A model generated the notes under the pieces. The model was not told where the DNA came from, did not search any database, and worked only from the letters and a program-made list of their open reading frames with translations. Of a stretch of 64,000 bases of DNA, positions 26,057 to 35,126 are shown piece after piece (the first letter of the stretch is position 1; every line of letters starts with the position of its first letter). The position numbers were made by a program, and so were the translations under genes. The DNA is from Escherichia coli (GTDB lineage Bacteria > Pseudomonadota > Gammaproteobacteria > Enterobacterales > Enterobacteriaceae), in the NCBI RefSeq assembly GCF_003790525.1, contig NZ_CP033635.1; one strand, given 5' to 3'.

Positions 26057-27250
26057 ATGCCACTTACTGTTCGACAAATTGAGTCGGCTAAACCTGCTGA
26101 CAAGGATTACAAACTTTCTGACGGTCAGGGCCTTTATCTTCTTGTCAAAAAATCCGGTGCCCGTTACTGGAATCTGAAGTACCGGTTTGCCGGTAAGGAA
26201 AAGAAACTGGTGATTGGTGTCTATCCTGACATATCACTGGCTCAGGCTCGTCAGAAGCGGGATGAAGCACGTAAACTTCTGGCTGAAGGTAAAGATCCGT
26301 CGTATGAAAAACAGGCGCGAAAACTTGCCATCAGGGAAAGTATGGCCTGCACATTTCGCACCATTGCAGAGGAGCTGCTTACTCATATGGCACGTCGATG
26401 GACAACAGGTTACCAGGCAGACCAGCGTGCAAGACTTGAAAATCATGTTTTCCCTGCTCTTGGAAACCGTCCTGTGACCGGGATCCGCCCCATGGAAATA
26501 CTGAACGTCCTGAGGACTATAGAAGAACAGGGAAAACTTGAAGCACTGCGTAAAACACGCCAGCTCTGTGCGCAGGTTTTTGATTATGCCATAGCAACAG
26601 GGCGTGCAACCGTTAATCCGGCATCGACACTCAGCGGGGTACTGCTTCCTCCTGAAAAACAACAGCGCAGGACGCTTTCTGAAGAACAGATAGGAGCTTT
26701 CATGTATCAGATAACGGCTTCCGGAAATCTGATGTCGCTGGCAACGCGGATGCTGGTTCTGACCGCTGTTCGCACCGGAGAACTGCGACTGGCAACCTGG
26801 GACGAAATTAATTTCACGGAGGCCCTGTGGGTTATTCCGAAAGAAAGAATGAAAATGCGACGACCGCACGTTGTGCCGCTTTCACGGCAGGTACTGGCGT
26901 TACTGGAGGAGATAAAAACACGCACTGAATCGCGTAATTCCGCCTTTATTATTCCTGGTGCATTCAGAAAAGATCTCCCGCGAAACCGCAAGTGTATCAA
27001 TGAATTCCTTGAGCAGTCAGGCTGGCATGCCCTGACAACAGCCCACGGATTTCGTCATACCTTCAGCACCATTCTCCATGACCATGATTTCAGCTCAGCC
27101 TGGATTGAACTCCAGCTTGCTCATGTTGATAAAAACGTCATGCGTGGCACTTATAACCATGCGCAATATCTGGATGGACGTCGTGAAATGATGCAGTGGT
27201 ACGCTGATTACATTGATTCACTTATGGAGAAAAACGTAAAAACGAAATAA
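26057..27250 (+). CDS. tyrosine site-specific integrase, phage P4 / CP4-57 IntA type
   Basis: 397-aa ORF with P4-integrase-like N-terminus and C-terminal catalytic HGFRHTF ... HxxR ... Y motifs. Confidence 0.9.
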   Translation: MPLTVRQIESAKPADKDYKLSDGQGLYLLVKKSGARYWNLKYRFAGKEKKLVIGVYPDISLAQARQKRDEARKLLAEGKDPSYEKQARKLAIRESMACTFRTIAEELLTHMARRWTTGYQADQRARLENHVFPALGNRPVTGIRPMEILNVLRTIEEQGKLEALRKTRQLCAQVFDYAIATGRATVNPASTLSGVLLPPEKQQRRTLSEEQIGAFMYQITASGNLMSLATRMLVLTAVRTGELRLATWDEINFTEALWVIPKERMKMRRPHVVPLSRQVLALLEEIKTRTESRNSAFIIPGAFRKDLPRNRKCINEFLEQSGWHALTTAHGFRHTFSTILHDHDFSSAWIELQLAHVDKNVMRGTYNHAQYLDGRREMMQWYADYIDSLMEKNVKTK

Positions 27251-27616: not shown

Positions 27617-28672
27617 ATGAACAGATTACGCTTTGAAGTGAAGAATAATCAGGGCTGCTTCATTTTCCCGGAAACCTGGTATGAATCACTACTGGAGAAG
27701 TTTAACGAACTGCTTGACTCCTTTGACGAGGATGAGATCAGCGACAGGTCTTATATCAATGCCCTGAAGCGTATCACACAACAGGAACCGGATTTTATTG
27801 ATGCGTATGCATACATGGCATATGCCTTTCTGGAGCAGGAGACACCGCGAAAAGCGCTGAATATTGCACTCAAAGGACTGGCGGCAGGTAACCGACTGAT
27901 ACCTGAAGGTTTCACCGGTGAAATCAGCTGGTTACATCCGGAAAACAGGCCCTTTCTGAATGCCCTTTACGCCGCCATCCTCGCGAATGTGCACCTGCAG
28001 CATCATCAGAATGCTGTCATGCTCATTGATAAAATTCTGGCTTACAATCCTTCAGATAATCCGGGAGCACGCTGGTTACTGGGACCGGAACTGTTGCGTT
28101 CTGGTGACCATGAACGGGCTCTCTGTGTTCTCCGGCAGTATGCAGATGAATTTTCGCCTTACTGGTATGAGCTTGGTCTTCTGCATTTTATTAATGGAGA
28201 GCCGGTGAAGGCAGCGACAGCTTTCCGGCGCGGCTTTGCAGAAAATACTTATATCGCGGAGATTCTATGCGGAAATCTGTACCCCTTCCCGCTTGCCCTT
28301 TGGCATGATTATTCATCTGAGCCGGATACAGCCAGACAGTATTATGAAACATTCTGCCCGTTATGGGGAAAATATCCCGAGGCATTGTTATTTGTTAACT
28401 GGCTCTACAACCAGTCTGGCGTACTGAGCGAACGGGCTGAATTCATGAAGTGTGCTGAAATGCTGTTAAGGGCAGATGATCAGGAAATGAATGAAAGCAT
28501 TTTTCAGCAGCGGGAGCTCTTACGGGAAAGAATTGATGATCGTCTTTCTGAGGAAATCGTTCAGAAATTACGGACATTGAACGGGGAGGAGATCTGGCCC
28601 TGGATGTTACCGTTTTCCGGAGAACTGATCCCCGCAGACATTTGCTTTCAGAACAGTCTGAAATATCAGTAA
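27617..28672 (+). CDS. hypothetical protein, TPR-like helical repeats by eye
   Basis: 351-aa ORF; repeated A/L/Y-rich helical segments; no family recognised. Confidence 0.6.
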   Translation: MNRLRFEVKNNQGCFIFPETWYESLLEKFNELLDSFDEDEISDRSYINALKRITQQEPDFIDAYAYMAYAFLEQETPRKALNIALKGLAAGNRLIPEGFTGEISWLHPENRPFLNALYAAILANVHLQHHQNAVMLIDKILAYNPSDNPGARWLLGPELLRSGDHERALCVLRQYADEFSPYWYELGLLHFINGEPVKAATAFRRGFAENTYIAEILCGNLYPFPLALWHDYSSEPDTARQYYETFCPLWGKYPEALLFVNWLYNQSGVLSERAEFMKCAEMLLRADDQEMNESIFQQRELLRERIDDRLSEEIVQKLRTLNGEEIWPWMLPFSGELIPADICFQNSLKYQ

Positions 28673-28773
28673 TATCTGCACCAGGATGCCATTCCGGGGT
28701 CAGTAAGGATCTTCCCCCTGACCTGGACAAATGTAATGAAACTCAGCTAAGCCCCAGAAGAGCAGGCATATAG

Positions 28774-29154
28774 TCAACCGAGGTCGCTGCAATAAACCAT
28801 CGCGCTTTGATTCCCCCGATGAAGAGGTGACTGGCAGCGACTTCCTGAGCGACGACTTGTCTTTCCATCAATAGCGACTACCTGAGAAGATAAAACAGGA
28901 AGGACTTCTGAACCCCATCGCCGGAACGCAGCTTCAAACTGCTCAGGGACAATCAGCCCAAAAAGACGGGCGAATGTATCATGGGAAGGTATGCCATTTT
29001 TTAGAGGTAAAAAACTGGCGGAGCCACTCAATGCGTTGCCTGCCCAGAGCTCAATTTCCTGAAAATTATCCGCACCGACCAGCACACCACAAACGGCAAT
29101 GGTCAATGTATCAACCAGAGTGTGCCTGACTTGTCCAGGGCTGACAGGGATCAT
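28774..29154 (-). pseudogene. ISAs1-family (H-repeat type) transposase N-terminal fragment
   Basis: DTLTIAVCGVLVGADNFQEIELWAGN...GIPSHDTFARLF...VAIDGKT resembles the N-terminus of ISAs1/YhhI-type transposases; only ~126 codons, C-terminal DDE region absent. Confidence 0.6.
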
Positions 29155-29299
29155 GTATTGAGATGAATATATCGGTAACCGGCGGTATATGAGACATAAT
29201 ATATCCCTTTGATAAAAAAGGTTATGTTGACATATTTATCCTGCATGTCACGTATCATTATTTTTCATGCGATTGCCCTGCGGTTACCACCGCTCACAG

Positions 29300-29404
29300 T
29301 TAGTAAAGGACTGGGCGGAAGTGGTCAATATAAGGTTGCATTACCTTCCTCCTTATAGTCCGAATCTGAATCCGATTGAACGGATGTGGAAAAATGCTGC
29401 TTAA
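29300..29404 (+). pseudogene. IS630-family transposase C-terminal remnant
   Basis: Reading frame ending ...YLPPYSPNLNPIERMWKNAA* matches the conserved DDE-proximal YSP(D/E)LNPIE motif of IS630/Tc1 transposases; no upstream ORF. Confidence 0.55.
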
Positions 29405-29716
29405 TAGTATTGATGTTCATCTTTATGCCTCTAAAAGAAAGCATAAGATCACAACAGGCTCAGCAGGTCAATCACTCTATTTTTGTTCAAAAAACGTTCA
29501 TGATCTTGCCCTACCCAATTTTGTGGGTAAGGATATGCGATGAAATTCTCCTTGCAGTTTAATACAACCTTTCCATATTAAGCGGCAGTATTACCTGCCA
29601 GTCAGGATAATTTTACACCTAATGTTAGTTAAAATTTGTGCAACTTGAAACAATAATACTACAGTATCCACTATCGTCAGCACACCTCAAATACTATTTT
29701 TTATGAAACGTTTATT

Positions 29717-30373
29717 TTATAAATCATTATCAATCAAACTCAGGAATGTATCTCTGGCATAATTACCAACGATGTTGGTTGTTATCGCATCAAGACTACC
29801 ACCAACGATTCCTCCTACAACAGGAACAAACTTTGACATATTAATAACACCAGTAGCACCTGTTTTTGTAAGCAGTCTGAAACCGACTGCCTTATTTATC
29901 TTTACAATAATATCTTTACTAATACATCTAATTGCATTTGTTGTCAACTTTTGTCCTATCTGAATTCCTGCTTCCTTCAAAATATCTTTCGCAGCATTAC
30001 CTACAAGACAGGTATAAACAATAGTTCTGACTTTATCATCACGAATATCCTGGCCACACATGATCGCAATAGATGCAACCATCCTGACCTGAATGAAAAG
30101 GACACTTGAAATATTGGTCGGTATAGTTACTGGTAATGTAATAATTCCTCCAAGACCAGTAAGAAAACCTGATGTGGCTGACTTGGTATTTTGCCATCGA
30201 ATAAGGCTATTTATCTGTTCTTTTAAACTACTACCCGTTTTCAGATAACTTTCCGCAAGACTATGTGCCGTATCAATTCCTGGGATACCAATACCATCGA
30301 TGGATTTTTCATAAGCGTAATCCAGAAATTTTATGATTTTTGATGGCGTGAGAATATTTTCATTATCAGTCAT
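29717..30373 (-). CDS. hypothetical protein, possibly EcsC-family; glycine-rich hydrophobic segments
   Basis: ORF trimmed to first internal ATG (MTDNENIL); motifs TSGFLTGLGGIITLPVTIP and VPVVGGIVGG; AT-rich by eye; family assignment from memory only. Confidence 0.55.
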   Translation of the reverse strand: MTDNENILTPSKIIKFLDYAYEKSIDGIGIPGIDTAHSLAESYLKTGSSLKEQINSLIRWQNTKSATSGFLTGLGGIITLPVTIPTNISSVLFIQVRMVASIAIMCGQDIRDDKVRTIVYTCLVGNAAKDILKEAGIQIGQKLTTNAIRCISKDIIVKINKAVGFRLLTKTGATGVINMSKFVPVVGGIVGGSLDAITTNIVGNYARDTFLSLIDNDL

Positions 30374-30464
30374 ACAACAAAACACCTAAAAATTTCACGA
30401 TCACTTTCTAAAAACTATCTCCGACAGATATCGGAACACCAGTATTATCACCAATTAAATAATA

Positions 30465-30656
30465 TTATTTTTTGAGAAACAATTGTATTGCTCTGGCAAA
30501 AAGATTTTCTGTAATTGTAGCCTTACGTTTATAAATAACTTTCTCTCCACACACAGGACATTCATAAAATCCTGCTGTACAATTCATATGAATAATAGTT
30601 TTACTCCATTGACAATTTGTACAGATAAATGTAATGGGTGGACAGGGAAAAATCAT
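30465..30656 (-). CDS. small zinc-ribbon protein (two Cys pairs)
   Basis: ORF trimmed to internal ATG (MIFPCPPITFICTNCQ...ECPVCGEK); CxxC-type pairs; sits between the 117-aa and EcsC-like genes on the same strand. Confidence 0.45.
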   Translation of the reverse strand: MIFPCPPITFICTNCQWSKTIIHMNCTAGFYECPVCGEKVIYKRKATITENLFARAIQLFLKK

Positions 30657-30746
30657 TGGCTCACACTCTCGATATATAAATAACACTTACAGGGACATGT
30701 AAATATTTTCGATTTATCCCTATAAAAATAACTTCACCTCCAGTAA

Positions 30747-31100
30747 TCAATTCAGTTCTGTAAGACGATCGATTATTTTACGTAGTTCATCTGCAGAATC
30801 ACATGTATCCAGTGAAATTTTTATTCTAAAATTCTTTAACCAATTAGCAGCCTCCTGATCTTCACGCCATAAACGCTCCCCGCTCCAATCCCCCCTAAAA
30901 CATAGAGCAGCAATAGCCAATCCTCTGCATGCTGGCCGATTATGCTCAGATGTATTATTTTGGTTATAAAAATCGTTAATTCTTTCTACCGGAGATGATT
31001 TTATTTTATCCCACACATTGAAATTAGCTTTTTTCATCGTTTCAGCAGCAGCATTAGAAGCAAGCTTACCGAATCCCATTATAGCATCCCAAAATCCCAT
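30747..31100 (-). CDS. hypothetical protein (117 aa)
   Basis: ATG start with AAGGTG RBS; no recognisable family; AT-rich. Confidence 0.5.
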   Translation of the reverse strand: MGFWDAIMGFGKLASNAAAETMKKANFNVWDKIKSSPVERINDFYNQNNTSEHNRPACRGLAIAALCFRGDWSGERLWREDQEAANWLKNFRIKISLDTCDSADELRKIIDRLTELN

Positions 31101-31312
31101 ATATCACCTTATGCTATATAATATCTAAATGAGTATCTAATCTTTTAGAACCACTATTTGGACAATGGTTTTACGCCACTTACATCTGGTACAAATGAAT
31201 GTAACCGGGGGCTGAGGAAGTGCCATGAAGGTACGTGTCTGTTGTATTAAACTATCAAATCAGACCACACGCTGCGATTTTGAATTTAACAACGTGTAGT
31301 CAGATATTACAT

Positions 31313-32062
31313 TCAGAAGCTGTATGTAGCACCTAACGTAAATTCGTTACTTCTGACATCAACAGAGGATTTATATGTATCCTGCCCGTCTTCATACGTC
31401 AGGGTTGAATCACCTGCATCAAGATAGCGATAAGCAAGGTCAAGACTGAAATCCGGGGTGACCTCATATTTCACGCCAACACCAAGGCTCCATGCGAAAT
31501 TGTTATCATATCCCGAGTAATGTAATGAAGAAGCATCACTTACTTCACCTGATTTATTCCAGGAGGTATCGGTGTATGTTGCCTTATGATGTACCCGCGC
31601 ATAACCCAGTCCGGCTGATACCCACGGAGTGAAAGCACTGCTGTTTCTGAAATCATAATACGTGTTCACCATCAGGGTATTCACGCTGAGCCTGTTTTGT
31701 GTGTCTTCCTTCCAACCATTATCTCCAGACGGGGACTCCCATGTATCCAGTGGATAGCGGGAATTCGCAGAGCCGCGACCATAGAATTCAACTTCCGTGC
31801 GTACAGGGACATTGTAGTGCTGATAAAAGTCGTATCCCACCGCAAGGCCAGCACCAAAAACCGTATCGCTCTTGTCACCGCCTTTATACTTATAAACATC
31901 ATCCCCAAAGTCCTGACTAAAGCGCTGATTATCCTGAGTGATAACAGATGCACCAGCCTTACCCGTGATATAGAAACCGGTTTTATCCGCATCTGCCAGC
32001 GTCAGCGTTGAAAACGTACCGGTAAGCGCAGCTACCGCAGTGAGTGCCAGTAACTTTTTCAC
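31313..32062 (-). CDS. outer-membrane beta-barrel protein, OmpA/opacity-like; possibly Hra/Tia/Hek adhesin-invasin family
   Basis: Signal peptide MKKLLALTAVAALTGTFSTLTLA, alternating amphipathic strands, C-terminal ...GATYSF with terminal aromatic; GTG start; ~249 aa as for Tia/Hek-type proteins. Confidence 0.6.
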   Translation of the reverse strand: MKKLLALTAVAALTGTFSTLTLADADKTGFYITGKAGASVITQDNQRFSQDFGDDVYKYKGGDKSDTVFGAGLAVGYDFYQHYNVPVRTEVEFYGRGSANSRYPLDTWESPSGDNGWKEDTQNRLSVNTLMVNTYYDFRNSSAFTPWVSAGLGYARVHHKATYTDTSWNKSGEVSDASSLHYSGYDNNFAWSLGVGVKYEVTPDFSLDLAYRYLDAGDSTLTYEDGQDTYKSSVDVRSNEFTLGATYSF

Positions 32063-32377
32063 AATCCACCTCTCCTGATGTTTCCTTCAGACATATGAAT
32101 TTGTCCAATTTTAAGACGGATTTCTCATTGGTAAAATGAATTGTACAGATCGTATCGATCGACAAAGTCGATCGTTAAGCAGAAAAAAGATTTATCGTCA
32201 GCGAAGATTTGTTTATGGAAATGACTGAAAAAACGGGTTAAAAAACAGACTGTTCTGTCCATGTGAAACGGGAAGTGACGGGATAAGACGTTATGTGAGG
32301 ATTGTTACGGGAAATGCTGTTTTACGTTGTTAAAATGTAACTCCGCAATGAAACTATCCCCTGTGGAGGTCCTGTAA

Positions 32378-32731
32378 ATGAACAAAGCACTCTCTTCCAT
32401 TCTGCTCATCTTCGGTATCTGTGCATCATCACTGGCCGCTGAAAAAAACAGAACCGTCAGTTTTCCACGATGTGAAGTACAGGAAGCATCAGCTGTTGCA
32501 GCCAGCGTCAAACGGGACTATCTCCAGAAACAGGTATTTCAGTGGAAAGATGATCAGGAAATTCTCGGTCAGCAGCGTCCCGTTGTCTGGGTGAATCTTC
32601 GTGAGCCGGTAAATAAAGGTGATAATGTCATCACAGTGCATCTCACTGCCCGTGGAAAGAAAGCAGATATTCAGTATCGTGTGCGCGTTGACTGTAAGAA
32701 CGGAAGTGCTACCTGGCAACGCCAGGGATGA
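32378..32731 (+). CDS. small secreted hypothetical protein
   Basis: 117-aa ORF with N-terminal signal peptide (ILLIFGICASSLAA). Confidence 0.45.
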   Translation: MNKALSSILLIFGICASSLAAEKNRTVSFPRCEVQEASAVAASVKRDYLQKQVFQWKDDQEILGQQRPVVWVNLREPVNKGDNVITVHLTARGKKADIQYRVRVDCKNGSATWQRQG

Positions 32732-32777
32732 ACGGGTGAAGTTGAATACAGAGCCCGAACGAACGGGCTCTCCATAC

Positions 32778-33350
32778 TCATCGTATATAACTGAATGCGG
32801 TGATGACGTGTTTCACCCCCGCCACGCGACTGGCGATATCAGCAGCAGCCTGTCCTTCCTTCTCTGTAACTCTCCCCATAAGAAAGACTTCACCATTCTC
32901 CGTCAGTACCTTTACATCTGACAGTTTCACCCTGCTGCTCTTCAGTAACTGTGCCCGGATTTTTGTGGTCAGCCACGCATCAGTAGCTGTTTTATCAGCC
33001 CGAAGTGGTTTTCCCGTCCTTATTTCATTCCATACCTGCACAGTCCCCTCAACACCATCTGCAATCTGACGGGCTTTTTCACCTGCACTACGGTCTGGTG
33101 CCTGCCCTGTCAGCAGTACAGTGCCCTGGTATGCTGTGACGATGATTCGCGCATCCCCCCTGAGTTGTGAGTCCTTCGACAGCGCACGGCTGACCCTTGC
33201 TTCCAGAATTTCATCATCAATCTGCGTTCCCGCACTTCGGGGGTCCACTGACACTTTAGTACCCACAGCAGCCGTACCGACCAGCGCAGCGGCAACACAA
33301 CCCTGTAACAGCAACAGAGTCGAAAGAAAAGGCAGAAACCAGCGTTGCAT
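32778..33350 (-). CDS. BON-domain lipoprotein, DolP (YraP) paralog
   Basis: Trimmed to MQRWFLPFLSTLLLLQGC lipobox start with GGAGG RBS; sequence closely parallels DolP/YraP (two BON domains, ...ASRVAGVKHVITAFSYIR). Confidence 0.75.
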   Translation of the reverse strand: MQRWFLPFLSTLLLLQGCVAAALVGTAAVGTKVSVDPRSAGTQIDDEILEARVSRALSKDSQLRGDARIIVTAYQGTVLLTGQAPDRSAGEKARQIADGVEGTVQVWNEIRTGKPLRADKTATDAWLTTKIRAQLLKSSRVKLSDVKVLTENGEVFLMGRVTEKEGQAAADIASRVAGVKHVITAFSYIR

Positions 33351-33673
33351 GGCAGAATCCTCCACGGTCTGATATCCGGAATTTCGCAGTATGACGGCAG
33401 GAATCAGCCATCACAGATACCACAAGCTTCAGAGAGTAACGAAAACGTTAAAGGAAACGGAAGTGCCTGAATGTAAAGAACGGGGAACCACACAGGGTAT
33501 GGACAAACATAATAACAATAACAGGATGAAAATATTGAATAAAAAATAAAAACCGAGACATCATCATTTGCAGTAATAGCCACCTCCTTACCGAAAAGTG
33601 TGAGTTGCCGGACATTTTTTAAACGCATGATAAGGTCTGATGATACAGTCACCCTGCAACCAGGAGGTACATC

Positions 33674-34091: not shown

Positions 34092-34526
34092 TTATCTCAG
34101 TGATGTCCTGGTTAATACAGAATACTGCCCCGGACCAAGTAACATAATGGCAATCCCCCCCATGAAATACAGCATTTCATTTTCAAGCCCCCACGCCCCT
34201 ACTTCAGTCAGTGTGAAAAACTTCCCTGTTCCGACCAGAAGCGTGGCAACAATCAGTGTCAGCGCATAAATCAGAGCAGCAGGTCTGGTAAATATCCCAA
34301 GAATGATAAGTACCGGAGCCACGATTTCACCAATATACACACCATAGGCAATAAATCCTGGCAAACCAGCATCCTGCAACATTGATATAATCCAGTTGAC
34401 ACCGTGCTCTATTTTGGCCACACCATGGAACAGCATCAATATACCAAATGTCAGTCTCAGCAACAGAAGACCTGTATCCGGGTAGTCTGTCAGTCTGGTA
34501 AAGAACATATTTATTCTTGCTGGCAT
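34092..34526 (-). CDS. DoxX-family inner membrane protein
   Basis: 144-aa ORF, 4 hydrophobic helices, DoxX-like pattern. Confidence 0.65.
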   Translation of the reverse strand: MPARINMFFTRLTDYPDTGLLLLRLTFGILMLFHGVAKIEHGVNWIISMLQDAGLPGFIAYGVYIGEIVAPVLIILGIFTRPAALIYALTLIVATLLVGTGKFFTLTEVGAWGLENEMLYFMGGIAIMLLGPGQYSVLTRTSLR

Positions 34527-35126
34527 AAAAAACCTCGTTAAACGATAACAGATAATGAAGAAACTATTATCGTTGAGTCGACACCATCAATTGACCAGAT
34601 ATTTCTGACATTCATAATCAAAAAATTTGACAAAACTGTAAACGTTCGCTTTTTATACCAACACAGAATCCACTCAGTCACACAACCTGTATGCGTCATT
34701 TCCTGCTGTTATTTAAAAAATTTCTCACGTAACAGACATTTCAAAAAAACACTAAAAAATACCAGAACAATTAAGATAATATTACGATCAAATAAGTAAA
34801 AGTCTTTTGTCTGTTATTTTTATTTTCTGTGATTACTGTCATTCTTTCACCACTTTAATTAACATCGCATAATAATCCGGGAGGTGGATAAGATATGAAA
34901 ATTAACTATCCTTTACTGGCGCTGGCGTTGAATTATTACCTGTAGAGCTCACTCCGGATGAGCAGAAAGAACCGATGGTGGCTCTTACTCCACTTTTATC
35001 CACTCCTTCACACAGCACTGTCAGTGCAGGTGCCTGAAAGATCTCGTTCCGTCACGGTAAAATGACGCTGGAAAATTCTTCACCAGAACTGCTCACTGTG
35101 TTAATTCGTGAACTGACCTGGGGGGA

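Follow-up and report, generated by a model that had tools for sequence, protein, structure and literature searches.

An AT-rich patch of an Escherichia coli genomic island carries a probably stand-alone EcsC-family defence candidate beside two small genes

The EcsC protein of Bacillus is linked to the EcsAB ATP-binding cassette (ABC) transporter and to membrane-protein quality control. Short EcsC-like proteins also form an entry of the PADLOC database, PDC-S29. PDC entries are 'phage defence candidates', computational nominations in which the label 'S' stands for a single gene; in the literature searched, one paper names PDC-S29, as an entry in a table, and it treats PDC genes as candidates awaiting test. 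EcsC-like genes have been reported in putative operons with the jumbo-phage sensor gene jukA (bioRxiv 10.1101/2022.09.17.508391), and in a type III-E CRISPR locus one such gene is predicted to be controlled by the CASP sigma factor (PMC10028731). Here we describe a relative from a genomic island of Escherichia coli. It lies in a stretch of 64,000 nucleotides (nt) of contig NZ_CP033635.1, referred to as the window throughout, together with two small open reading frames (ORFs). All three are co-directional on the minus strand and encode proteins of 117 amino acids (aa), 63 aa with two CxxC pairs, and 218 aa. The initial annotation had likened them to the compact modules of toxin-antitoxin and abortive-infection systems. 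Our analysis argues that the 218-aa gene is very probably a stand-alone PDC-S29 gene and not part of an obligate trio, and that the three-gene architecture is largely a product of local linkage that does not generalise.

The 218-aa protein had been assigned to the EcsC family only tentatively, and profile searches bore this out. It matched Pfam EcsC (PF12787; E 3.2e-11, score 43.8) with residues 53-214 against positions 82-235 of the 240 in the model, and all 18 of the 18 aligned relatives matched the same model (E <= 0.001). The PADLOC hidden Markov model (HMM) for PDC-S29 gave a full-length match (E 6.4e-86, 285 bits), in which residues 10-216 align with positions 10-214 of the 220 in the profile, and PDC-S30 gave a weaker one (E 4e-12). 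The ratio of nonsynonymous to synonymous substitution rates (dN/dS), calculated by the Nei-Gojobori method across three diverged forms of the block found in E. coli assemblies, was 0.03-0.15 for this gene, indicating strong purifying selection. RefSeq names the 218-aa product 'EcsC family protein' and the 117-aa product 'hypothetical protein', and leaves the ORF between them, here called the zinc-ribbon ORF, without annotation. The 218-aa gene is already annotated as EcsC family and already catalogued as a defence candidate, and the copy in the window is a further member. A kinship with DUF697, suggested by JGI names, was rejected, as none of 18 members matched Pfam DUF697.

In this protein a helical N-terminal part is followed by two glycine- and proline-rich hydrophobic stretches, the first at residues about 66-108 (...GFLTGLGGIITLPVTIPTNISSVLFIQVRMVASIAIM...) and the second at residues 172-203 (...FVPVVGGIVGGSLDAITTNIVG...), which correspond to the glycine-rich hydrophobic segments seen in the initial annotation. 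Many residues are invariant among EcsC-like homologues, R59, W60, Q61 and N62 among them, and the hydrophobic stretches coincide with invariant motifs and with low-confidence parts of the AlphaFold2 model. Two glycine motifs, G69xxxG73xGG and GGxxGG, together with the hydropathy peaks suggest that the protein acts at a membrane. A Foldseek comparison of the model with the PDB returned nothing meaningful (best E 1.3), and a profile search of PDB sequences with the EcsC-like protein returned no match.

Evidence on the organisation of the locus comes from other species. A large protein collection contained 2,238 homologues across phyla at 52-67%, typically 57-67%, identity, from Enterobacterales, Aeromonas, Vibrio, Pseudomonas, Bacillus/Paenibacillus, Duganella and others. 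When one genome was scanned for each of ~100,000 species, 352 EcsC-like loci were confirmed (~0.35%); they occur in Proteobacteria, Firmicutes, Bacteroidota, Campylobacterota and Myxococcota and are 52-63% identical. For neighbourhoods we used the best 80 of these 352 loci, from 80 species, with 4 kb of flank on each side. None of the 80 contained a tblastn match to the zinc-ribbon ORF or to the 117-aa protein, and none had a small CxxC...CxxC ORF within 700 nt upstream on the same strand. When all neighbouring ORFs in these loci were clustered, there was no conserved neighbour (no ORF family was common to more than five loci) and no conserved ABC-transporter partner. The gaps on either side of the EcsC-like gene in other species were usually 50-500 nt. 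Since the 80 loci show no homologue of either small ORF, no conserved neighbour and sizeable gaps, the EcsC-like gene appears to be a stand-alone unit.

Copies in E. coli itself lead to the same conclusion. An EcsC-like copy was present in 33 of 5,426 complete E. coli genomes, 24 of them chromosomal and nine in plasmid records. A 117-aa gene region adjoins every one of the 24 chromosomal copies (in one, H69, the match is partial), and all nine plasmid copies match over the EcsC-like part only, with neither the 117-aa gene nor the zinc-ribbon ORF; on the 2,131-bp plasmid pE6474.4 (NZ_CP116985.1) the EcsC-like gene is the sole annotated gene. Because such EcsC-only copies exist, the 218-aa gene needs neither small gene, even in E. 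coli. If they formed a module the three genes should travel together, and here the earlier reading fails: the small genes are absent from 80 of 80 other-species loci and from the nine E. coli plasmid records, distant 117-aa homologues occur without EcsC, and co-occurrence breaks down outside Escherichia/Salmonella-type islands. As judged from sequence comparison, the two small genes appear to accompany the EcsC-like gene only in E. coli-type genomic islands.

In PLSDB, the EcsC-like gene was found on 207 plasmids. About 180 of these are large Klebsiella plasmids with a 56%-identical gene; on pKCTC2242 (L112 5207-6636), the one such plasmid examined, it lies 26 nt downstream of a DUF2971 gene. 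Tiny Rop/ColE1-type plasmids of ~2.2 kb from E. coli and other enterobacteria (L111, L090-L092) carry a 63%-identical copy as their sole annotated cargo. The only records labelled as phage with an EcsC-like gene were those of Listeria phages LM 4-14-1 and LM 4-11-1 (45% identity), each ~11 kb and unannotated, and we rejected the idea of a typical phage gene.

Within E. coli islands the trio can be followed through three diverged lineages. The 1.8 kb around it is 100% identical in several complete, mostly poultry-associated E. coli genomes, and the trio region was found in 16 of the 5,426 complete genomes. Type 1 comprises the version in the window and a variant, 95.6% identical in DNA, from a different chromosomal site; type 2 differs most from the window, with amino-acid identities of 84% (EcsC), 69% (117-aa protein) and 33% (zinc ribbon), and type 3 stands at 90%, 85% and 75%, respectively. 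The rest of the cargo differs by type, with sit, iol and ter genes in type 1, an AraC regulator, a GGDEF protein, an MFS transporter and a phosphoethanolamine transferase in type 2 (plus, in some copies, an HsdS/AAA_15 defence-type pair), and a large ResIII/SNF2 helicase in type 3. Integrases of related islands are only 54-84% identical, compared with 90-99.5% for EcsC. Because its order is kept and it is far more conserved than the adjoining integrases, the trio block seems to travel between islands as one piece. Such behaviour fits a local functional link, and also simple tight linkage of ~1.4 kb. An obligate link is disfavoured, since the 117-aa gene is frameshifted in some strains with an intact EcsC gene and the type-2 zinc-ribbon alleles show decay of a putative zinc ligand. 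Related islands (window 26057-27250; L001, L002, L093-L095) occupy varied sites, next to sapF/ycjD, ulaD, dsbD or a DUF554 gene.

The zinc-ribbon ORF is probably coding, and is the weakest of the three in this respect. An ORF of at least 63 codons arose by chance in 5.3% of shuffles of the 373-nt spacer, so the coding case rests on an open frame in all three lineages (63-69 codons, 33-84% amino-acid identity), on a kept motif, PPxxFICxxCxWxKT...CPVxG...R+xA, and on a dN/dS below 1 (0.24-0.42). The product is small and basic (pI 9.1), with homologues in two clusters among 5.8 billion proteins. The earlier description as zinc-ribbon-like stood in part: the two cysteine pairs are present, but the best family matches in Pfam, NCBIfam and the PDB were generic and sub-threshold (E 0.01-0.3), and PHROGs likewise gave sub-threshold matches only (overall zinc-ribbon, Rpo12 or Lar-like). 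Both pairs are found in type-1 and type-3 alleles. In type-2 alleles one cysteine of the second pair is gone, at differing positions in two sub-lineages (CPVYG versus YPVCG; L083 4758-4964 and L110 5723-5929), which on sequence grounds are independent losses of a putative zinc ligand. Synonymous divergence (dS) between the window (30465-30656) and the type-1 variant L002 (NZ_CP029741.1, 8956-9147) is 0.31 in this ORF as against 0.04-0.08 in the flanking genes, and the two are otherwise near-identical (EcsC 99.5%, 117-aa protein 99%). The pattern resembles a patch of mosaicism or recombination with the small ORF at its centre. We take the zinc-ribbon ORF to be under weak constraint and to mark a local hot spot of divergence or recombination. 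The RefSeq locus tags of the two genes flanking it skip one number (RS15480).

A truncated copy of the 5' half of this ORF lies upstream of the 117-aa gene (Table 1). It shares a 56-nt direct repeat with that ORF (30586-30641 versus 31156-31211, 73% identity), and tblastn aligns it to the zinc-ribbon ORF at 58% identity over 24 aa (E 5e-6), with homology stopping after about codon 29. The 95.6%-identical variant island has an in-frame stop inside the copy. These features suggest an old partial duplication of the 5' end of the zinc-ribbon gene. Overall, the zinc-ribbon ORF appears to be fast-evolving and confined to this island lineage.

For the 117-aa protein, the initial annotation had seen no recognisable family, and we likewise found no match in Pfam, NCBIfam, PADLOC or PHROG. 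Its own family is very small, with 10 clusters in the 5.8-billion-protein collection (all Escherichia where an organism is named) and no more than 16 matches when 1.84 billion representatives were searched in full with a profile; in AFDB there are further, uncharacterised relatives, at 70% in Salmonella and at ~40% in Pseudomonas, Vibrio and one other source. The gene has a dN/dS of 0.08-0.23. AlphaFold2 predicts a seven-helix TPR/ARM-like repeat (predicted local distance difference test score, pLDDT, 82), and no specific structural relative of this model was found. Distant homologues (27-40% identity) have neither EcsC nor the zinc-ribbon ORF alongside. Where enough flanking sequence allowed their context to be judged, several lie close to other defence genes: in one locus (L099 229-2550) a complete JukA-JukB pair is followed after 346 nt by a 40%-identical homologue, which faces a kinase-AAA (IetA/PD-T4-6-like) gene, another is within 1-2 kb of PDC-M09A/B and a BrxR regulator (L103 4001-7379), and a third lies upstream of, and within 1-2 kb of, a WYL regulator and a PDC-M09A-like gene (L107 4001-7093). 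Because these distant members adjoin other defence systems without EcsC, the 117-aa family appears to be an independent small resident of defence islands. It may be a recurrent one.

Defence-type genes are also found around the EcsC-like gene. Among 30 immediate neighbours from other species, eight matched PADLOC (E < 1e-5): a pVip-like radical-SAM protein, a tandem second EcsC paralogue, an Old/GajA/AriA-like ATPase, Orf5/HEC-06 (DUF262-type), a TIR protein (PDC-S66), JukA, PDC-S11 and BovA. In our judgement this fraction is far above what arbitrary genes would give. JukA was found alongside in one of the 80 loci, a Silvanigrella metagenome-assembled genome in which the PDC-S29 gene is followed 42 nt downstream by JukA (L029 4001-5421; PADLOC E 5e-76), and PDC-S11 adjoins the EcsC-like gene in three Bacillaceae loci (L026, L028 and L030; tblastn). 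The eight neighbours agree with the published jukA pairing and type III-E CRISPR placement of EcsC-like genes. In Christiangramia (L058 3177-4609) EcsC-like genes are in tandem, a 259-aa paralogue (PDC-S29 E 3e-8) lying 45 nt upstream of the close homologue.

As the anchor gene is a catalogued candidate and the small genes accompany it only in E. coli-type islands, we read the locus as a defence-type cargo patch and not as a new three-part system. The defence-type character proposed in the initial annotation has support from the full-length PDC-S29 match and from relatives among defence genes, and the three-gene, toxin-antitoxin-like module is not supported. The proposal as a whole is a small, horizontally acquired patch with a stand-alone, membrane-acting PDC-S29 effector and two passengers or modulators, and we regard it as evenly balanced between right and wrong. 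The patch would sit at the integrase-proximal end of the island, anchored by the 218-aa gene of a strongly conserved, patchily distributed, stand-alone family. The 218-aa protein would be self-contained, its two glycine-rich hydrophobic hairpins associating with or inserting into the inner membrane; on a phage-derived cue it would disturb membrane integrity or potential, and infection would be aborted. In some genomes the EcsC-like protein may instead work with JukA or another separate sensor. Of the two small genes, that of the 117-aa helical-repeat protein would be an independent resident of defence islands, and the zinc-ribbon ORF would be restricted to its lineage; both would be inherited together with the EcsC-like gene in Escherichia-type islands, as modulators at most and not required to tolerate it. 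For the defence function and the membrane mechanism of the 218-aa protein, our confidence is tentative, at even or slightly below.

Several observations weigh against this proposal. Hydropathy of the 218-aa protein is moderate (Kyte-Doolittle maximum 1.9) and its AlphaFold2 model is poor (pLDDT 59, from 63 homologues), so membrane insertion is only putative. The 30 neighbours were picked for proximity and size, not at random and with no matched control, which makes the count of eight a descriptive one. Within the window, the rest of the island holds no recognised defence system, and its cargo is of the fitness type (sit, iol, ter and envelope-protein paralogues). A literature search found no experiment on PDC-S29 or on any EcsC-like protein as a defence gene, and the Juk preprint reported no activity for an EcsC-paired operon (bioRxiv 10.1101/2022.09.17.508391). 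Finally, the three diverged E. coli lineages all have the genes in one order (117-aa gene, zinc-ribbon ORF, EcsC-like gene), and both small genes are under purifying selection there, as a true local partnership would show.

These last two points are also the basis for a true enterobacterial three-part system, with a 117-aa sensor or adaptor, a zinc-ribbon regulator and an EcsC-like membrane effector co-transcribed from the promoter of the 117-aa gene. Order and orientation are kept across the lineages (EcsC 84-100%, 117-aa protein 69-100%, zinc ribbon 33-100%) in a block that is more conserved than its integrases (54-84%) and moves as a unit, dN/dS is below 1 for all three ORFs, the 24 of 24 chromosomal E. 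coli copies (H69 partially) adjoin a 117-aa region, and both the 117-aa and the EcsC-like families have been seen beside Juk systems elsewhere. However, closely related islands may share gene order over a short range through linkage alone, and several observations speak against a partnership: the EcsC-like gene lacks both small genes in 80 other species and on E. coli plasmids, 117-aa homologues exist without EcsC, the 117-aa gene is frameshifted in some EcsC-intact strains, type-2 zinc-ribbon alleles have lost a zinc ligand at differing positions in two sub-lineages, and a terminator-like hairpin separates the zinc-ribbon ORF from the EcsC-like gene. We consider such a system improbable. The same low likelihood attaches to a broader version of it, an immune module in which the small proteins gate an effector that works alone elsewhere, with the 117-aa family as an unrecognised defence-island component or regulator (as at the JukAB, PDC-M09 and WYL/BrxR loci). 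The narrowest form of partnership, a type II-like toxin-antitoxin pair in which the zinc-ribbon protein neutralises a toxic EcsC-like membrane protein, we hold to be very improbable. The arrangement, with a small basic protein (pI 9.1) encoded immediately ahead of a putative membrane-active one, does resemble some toxin-antitoxin or abortive-infection pairs, by analogy. Yet a Cys-pair ORF precedes the EcsC-like gene in none of the 80 loci, the supposed toxin diverges far more slowly than the zinc-ribbon ORF, which has lost a Cys ligand, and the 91-nt gap with its terminator-like hairpin shows no overlap or tight coupling; the pair is largely refuted by the EcsC-like copies that stand alone in E. 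coli itself, on 2.1-kb and large plasmids.

The remaining alternative lies outside defence: the EcsC-like protein could be an accessory envelope or membrane-stress protein, or a maintenance or exclusion factor of a mobile element, carried together with envelope cargo (Adr/OmpW-like, YebF, DolP). Canonical EcsC, tied to EcsAB and membrane-protein quality control in Bacillus, would fit such a role, and so would the envelope proteins encoded next to the trio in the window. Upstream of the 117-aa gene, type 1 has an outer-membrane protein gene, type 3 has its N-terminal remnant, and type 2 has a weak, non-significant match (E 0.34) in the corresponding place. The frequency of the EcsC-like gene on plasmids and the absence of any phage-defence experiment in the literature point the same way. 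Nevertheless, no ABC-transporter partner is found here or in the 80 species loci, and outside E. coli the envelope cargo is unlinked to the EcsC-like gene, among whose neighbours defence genes are frequent. A gene present in ~0.35% of species, 55-63% identical across phyla and with ever-changing neighbours, is typical of mobile defence or selfish cargo, unlike envelope housekeeping. We think a non-defence role unlikely, and retain the cargo-patch reading with its stand-alone PDC-S29 gene.

Table 1. Features of the trio region and their positions in the window
Feature	Position	Strand	Remarks
AT-rich block	29200..31400		~2.2 kb, GC 0.32-0.37, contains the three ORFs; composition profile
218-aa EcsC-family protein, PDC-S29 member	29717..30373	-	218 aa from ATG; 222 aa from GTG at 30385
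Weak terminator-like hairpin and T-run (putative)	30419..30436	-	between zinc-ribbon stop and EcsC start; consensus scan, pattern match only
63-aa zinc-ribbon-like ORF, C12xxC15 ... C34xxC37	30465..30656	-	63 aa from ATG; 73 aa from GTG at 30686
117-aa protein, very small uncharacterised family	30747..31100	-	N-terminal MGFWD motif conserved; strong AAGGTG Shine-Dalgarno
Truncated, decaying second copy of zinc-ribbon 5' half (MALPQPPVTFICTRCKWRKTIVQIVVLKD, then stop)	31137..31226	-	upstream of 117-aa gene

The position and composition of the three genes (Table 1) are much as first described. Their spacers measure 90 and 91 nt if translation begins at ATG and 60 and 79 nt if the longest forms are taken, so that the 60-90 bp originally given becomes 60-91 nt depending on the start, and the GC content of the flanks (0.45-0.50 in the composition profile) confirms that the block is AT-rich relative to the surrounding island. 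The placement between insertion sequence (IS) remnants and an outer-membrane protein gene agrees with the RefSeq annotation of an identical E. coli locus, where the order from the integrase side is a P4-type tyrosine integrase, a TPR protein, an ISAs1 transposase fragment, a second transposase fragment, the 'EcsC family protein', the 'hypothetical protein' that is the 117-aa ORF, and the outer-membrane protein, with YebF and DolP paralogues, sit genes, IS66, iol genes and ter genes beyond. Promoter-like sites around the trio were no commoner than in shuffled sequence, and an Rfam scan of 28500-32500 for non-coding RNA gave nothing relevant.

Some of the neighbouring genes are worth recording. 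Extra copies of envelope proteins at 31313-33365 comprise an Adr/OmpW/Lom-like beta-barrel outer-membrane protein (249 aa), a YebF paralogue (117 aa) and a DolP paralogue (195 aa). The TPR protein adjoining the integrase (351 aa, 27617-28672, plus strand) has no PADLOC match; it is kept beside the trio in type-2 islands (70% identity) and not in type-3 islands. A second AT-rich dip, at 34400-35000 (GC 0.33-0.35), lies downstream of a DoxX-family gene region.

The locus reveals no new kind of system, and its remaining interest lies in the conservation of PDC-S29 and in the 117-aa family at the edges of unrelated defence systems. PDC-S29 proteins are unusual in combining 55-63% identity across phyla with presence in ~0.35% of species and, in one case, with being the sole cargo of a 2-kb plasmid. 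The E. coli copy offers a tractable host for a first functional test. If it proved protective, a database candidate would become a validated single-gene and probably membrane-acting defence, and the EcsC fold, which is also met with next to JukA sensors and in a type III-E CRISPR locus, would gain a function.

Compared with described systems, the 218-aa protein shares with B. subtilis EcsC (ecsA-ecsB-ecsC, PF12787) the EcsC domain and two glycine-rich hydrophobic segments. It differs in that the N-terminal third of the Pfam model is unmatched, in belonging to a mobile, patchy subfamily, and in its context, since no EcsA/EcsB-type ABC-transporter genes adjoin it in the window, in identical RefSeq loci or in the 80 species loci. 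Juk, with its JukA sensor and JukB effector, is approached from two sides, by the PDC-S29 homologue upstream of JukA in Silvanigrella and by the distant 117-aa homologue just downstream of JukA-JukB, and the preprint lists EcsC-like proteins as putative jukA partners. However, the window has no JukA or JukB homologue (no PADLOC match among the five region proteins scanned and no tblastn match), JukA accompanies only one of 80 EcsC-like loci, and no EcsC-paired Juk operon has been shown active. The EcsC-like gene of the type III-E CRISPR locus (Cas7-11/Csx29) likewise encodes an EcsC-like protein downstream of an immune system, under predicted CASP-sigma control (PMC10028731), but no CRISPR or sigma-factor context is present here. 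A looser analogy is with single-gene abortive-infection membrane effectors and glycine-zipper pore-forming toxins, which are also small, stand-alone proteins with glycine-rich hydrophobic segments on plasmids and islands; the 218-aa protein has no sequence or fold similarity to any solved structure, and its membrane insertion and toxicity are putative. The closest counterpart is PDC-S29 itself. Although this entry is a computational candidate, and the E. coli island copy comes with two co-inherited small ORFs outside the PADLOC definition, the two agree in a full-length HMM match and in a gene that, in other genomes, stands alone and in some loci has defence-type neighbours.

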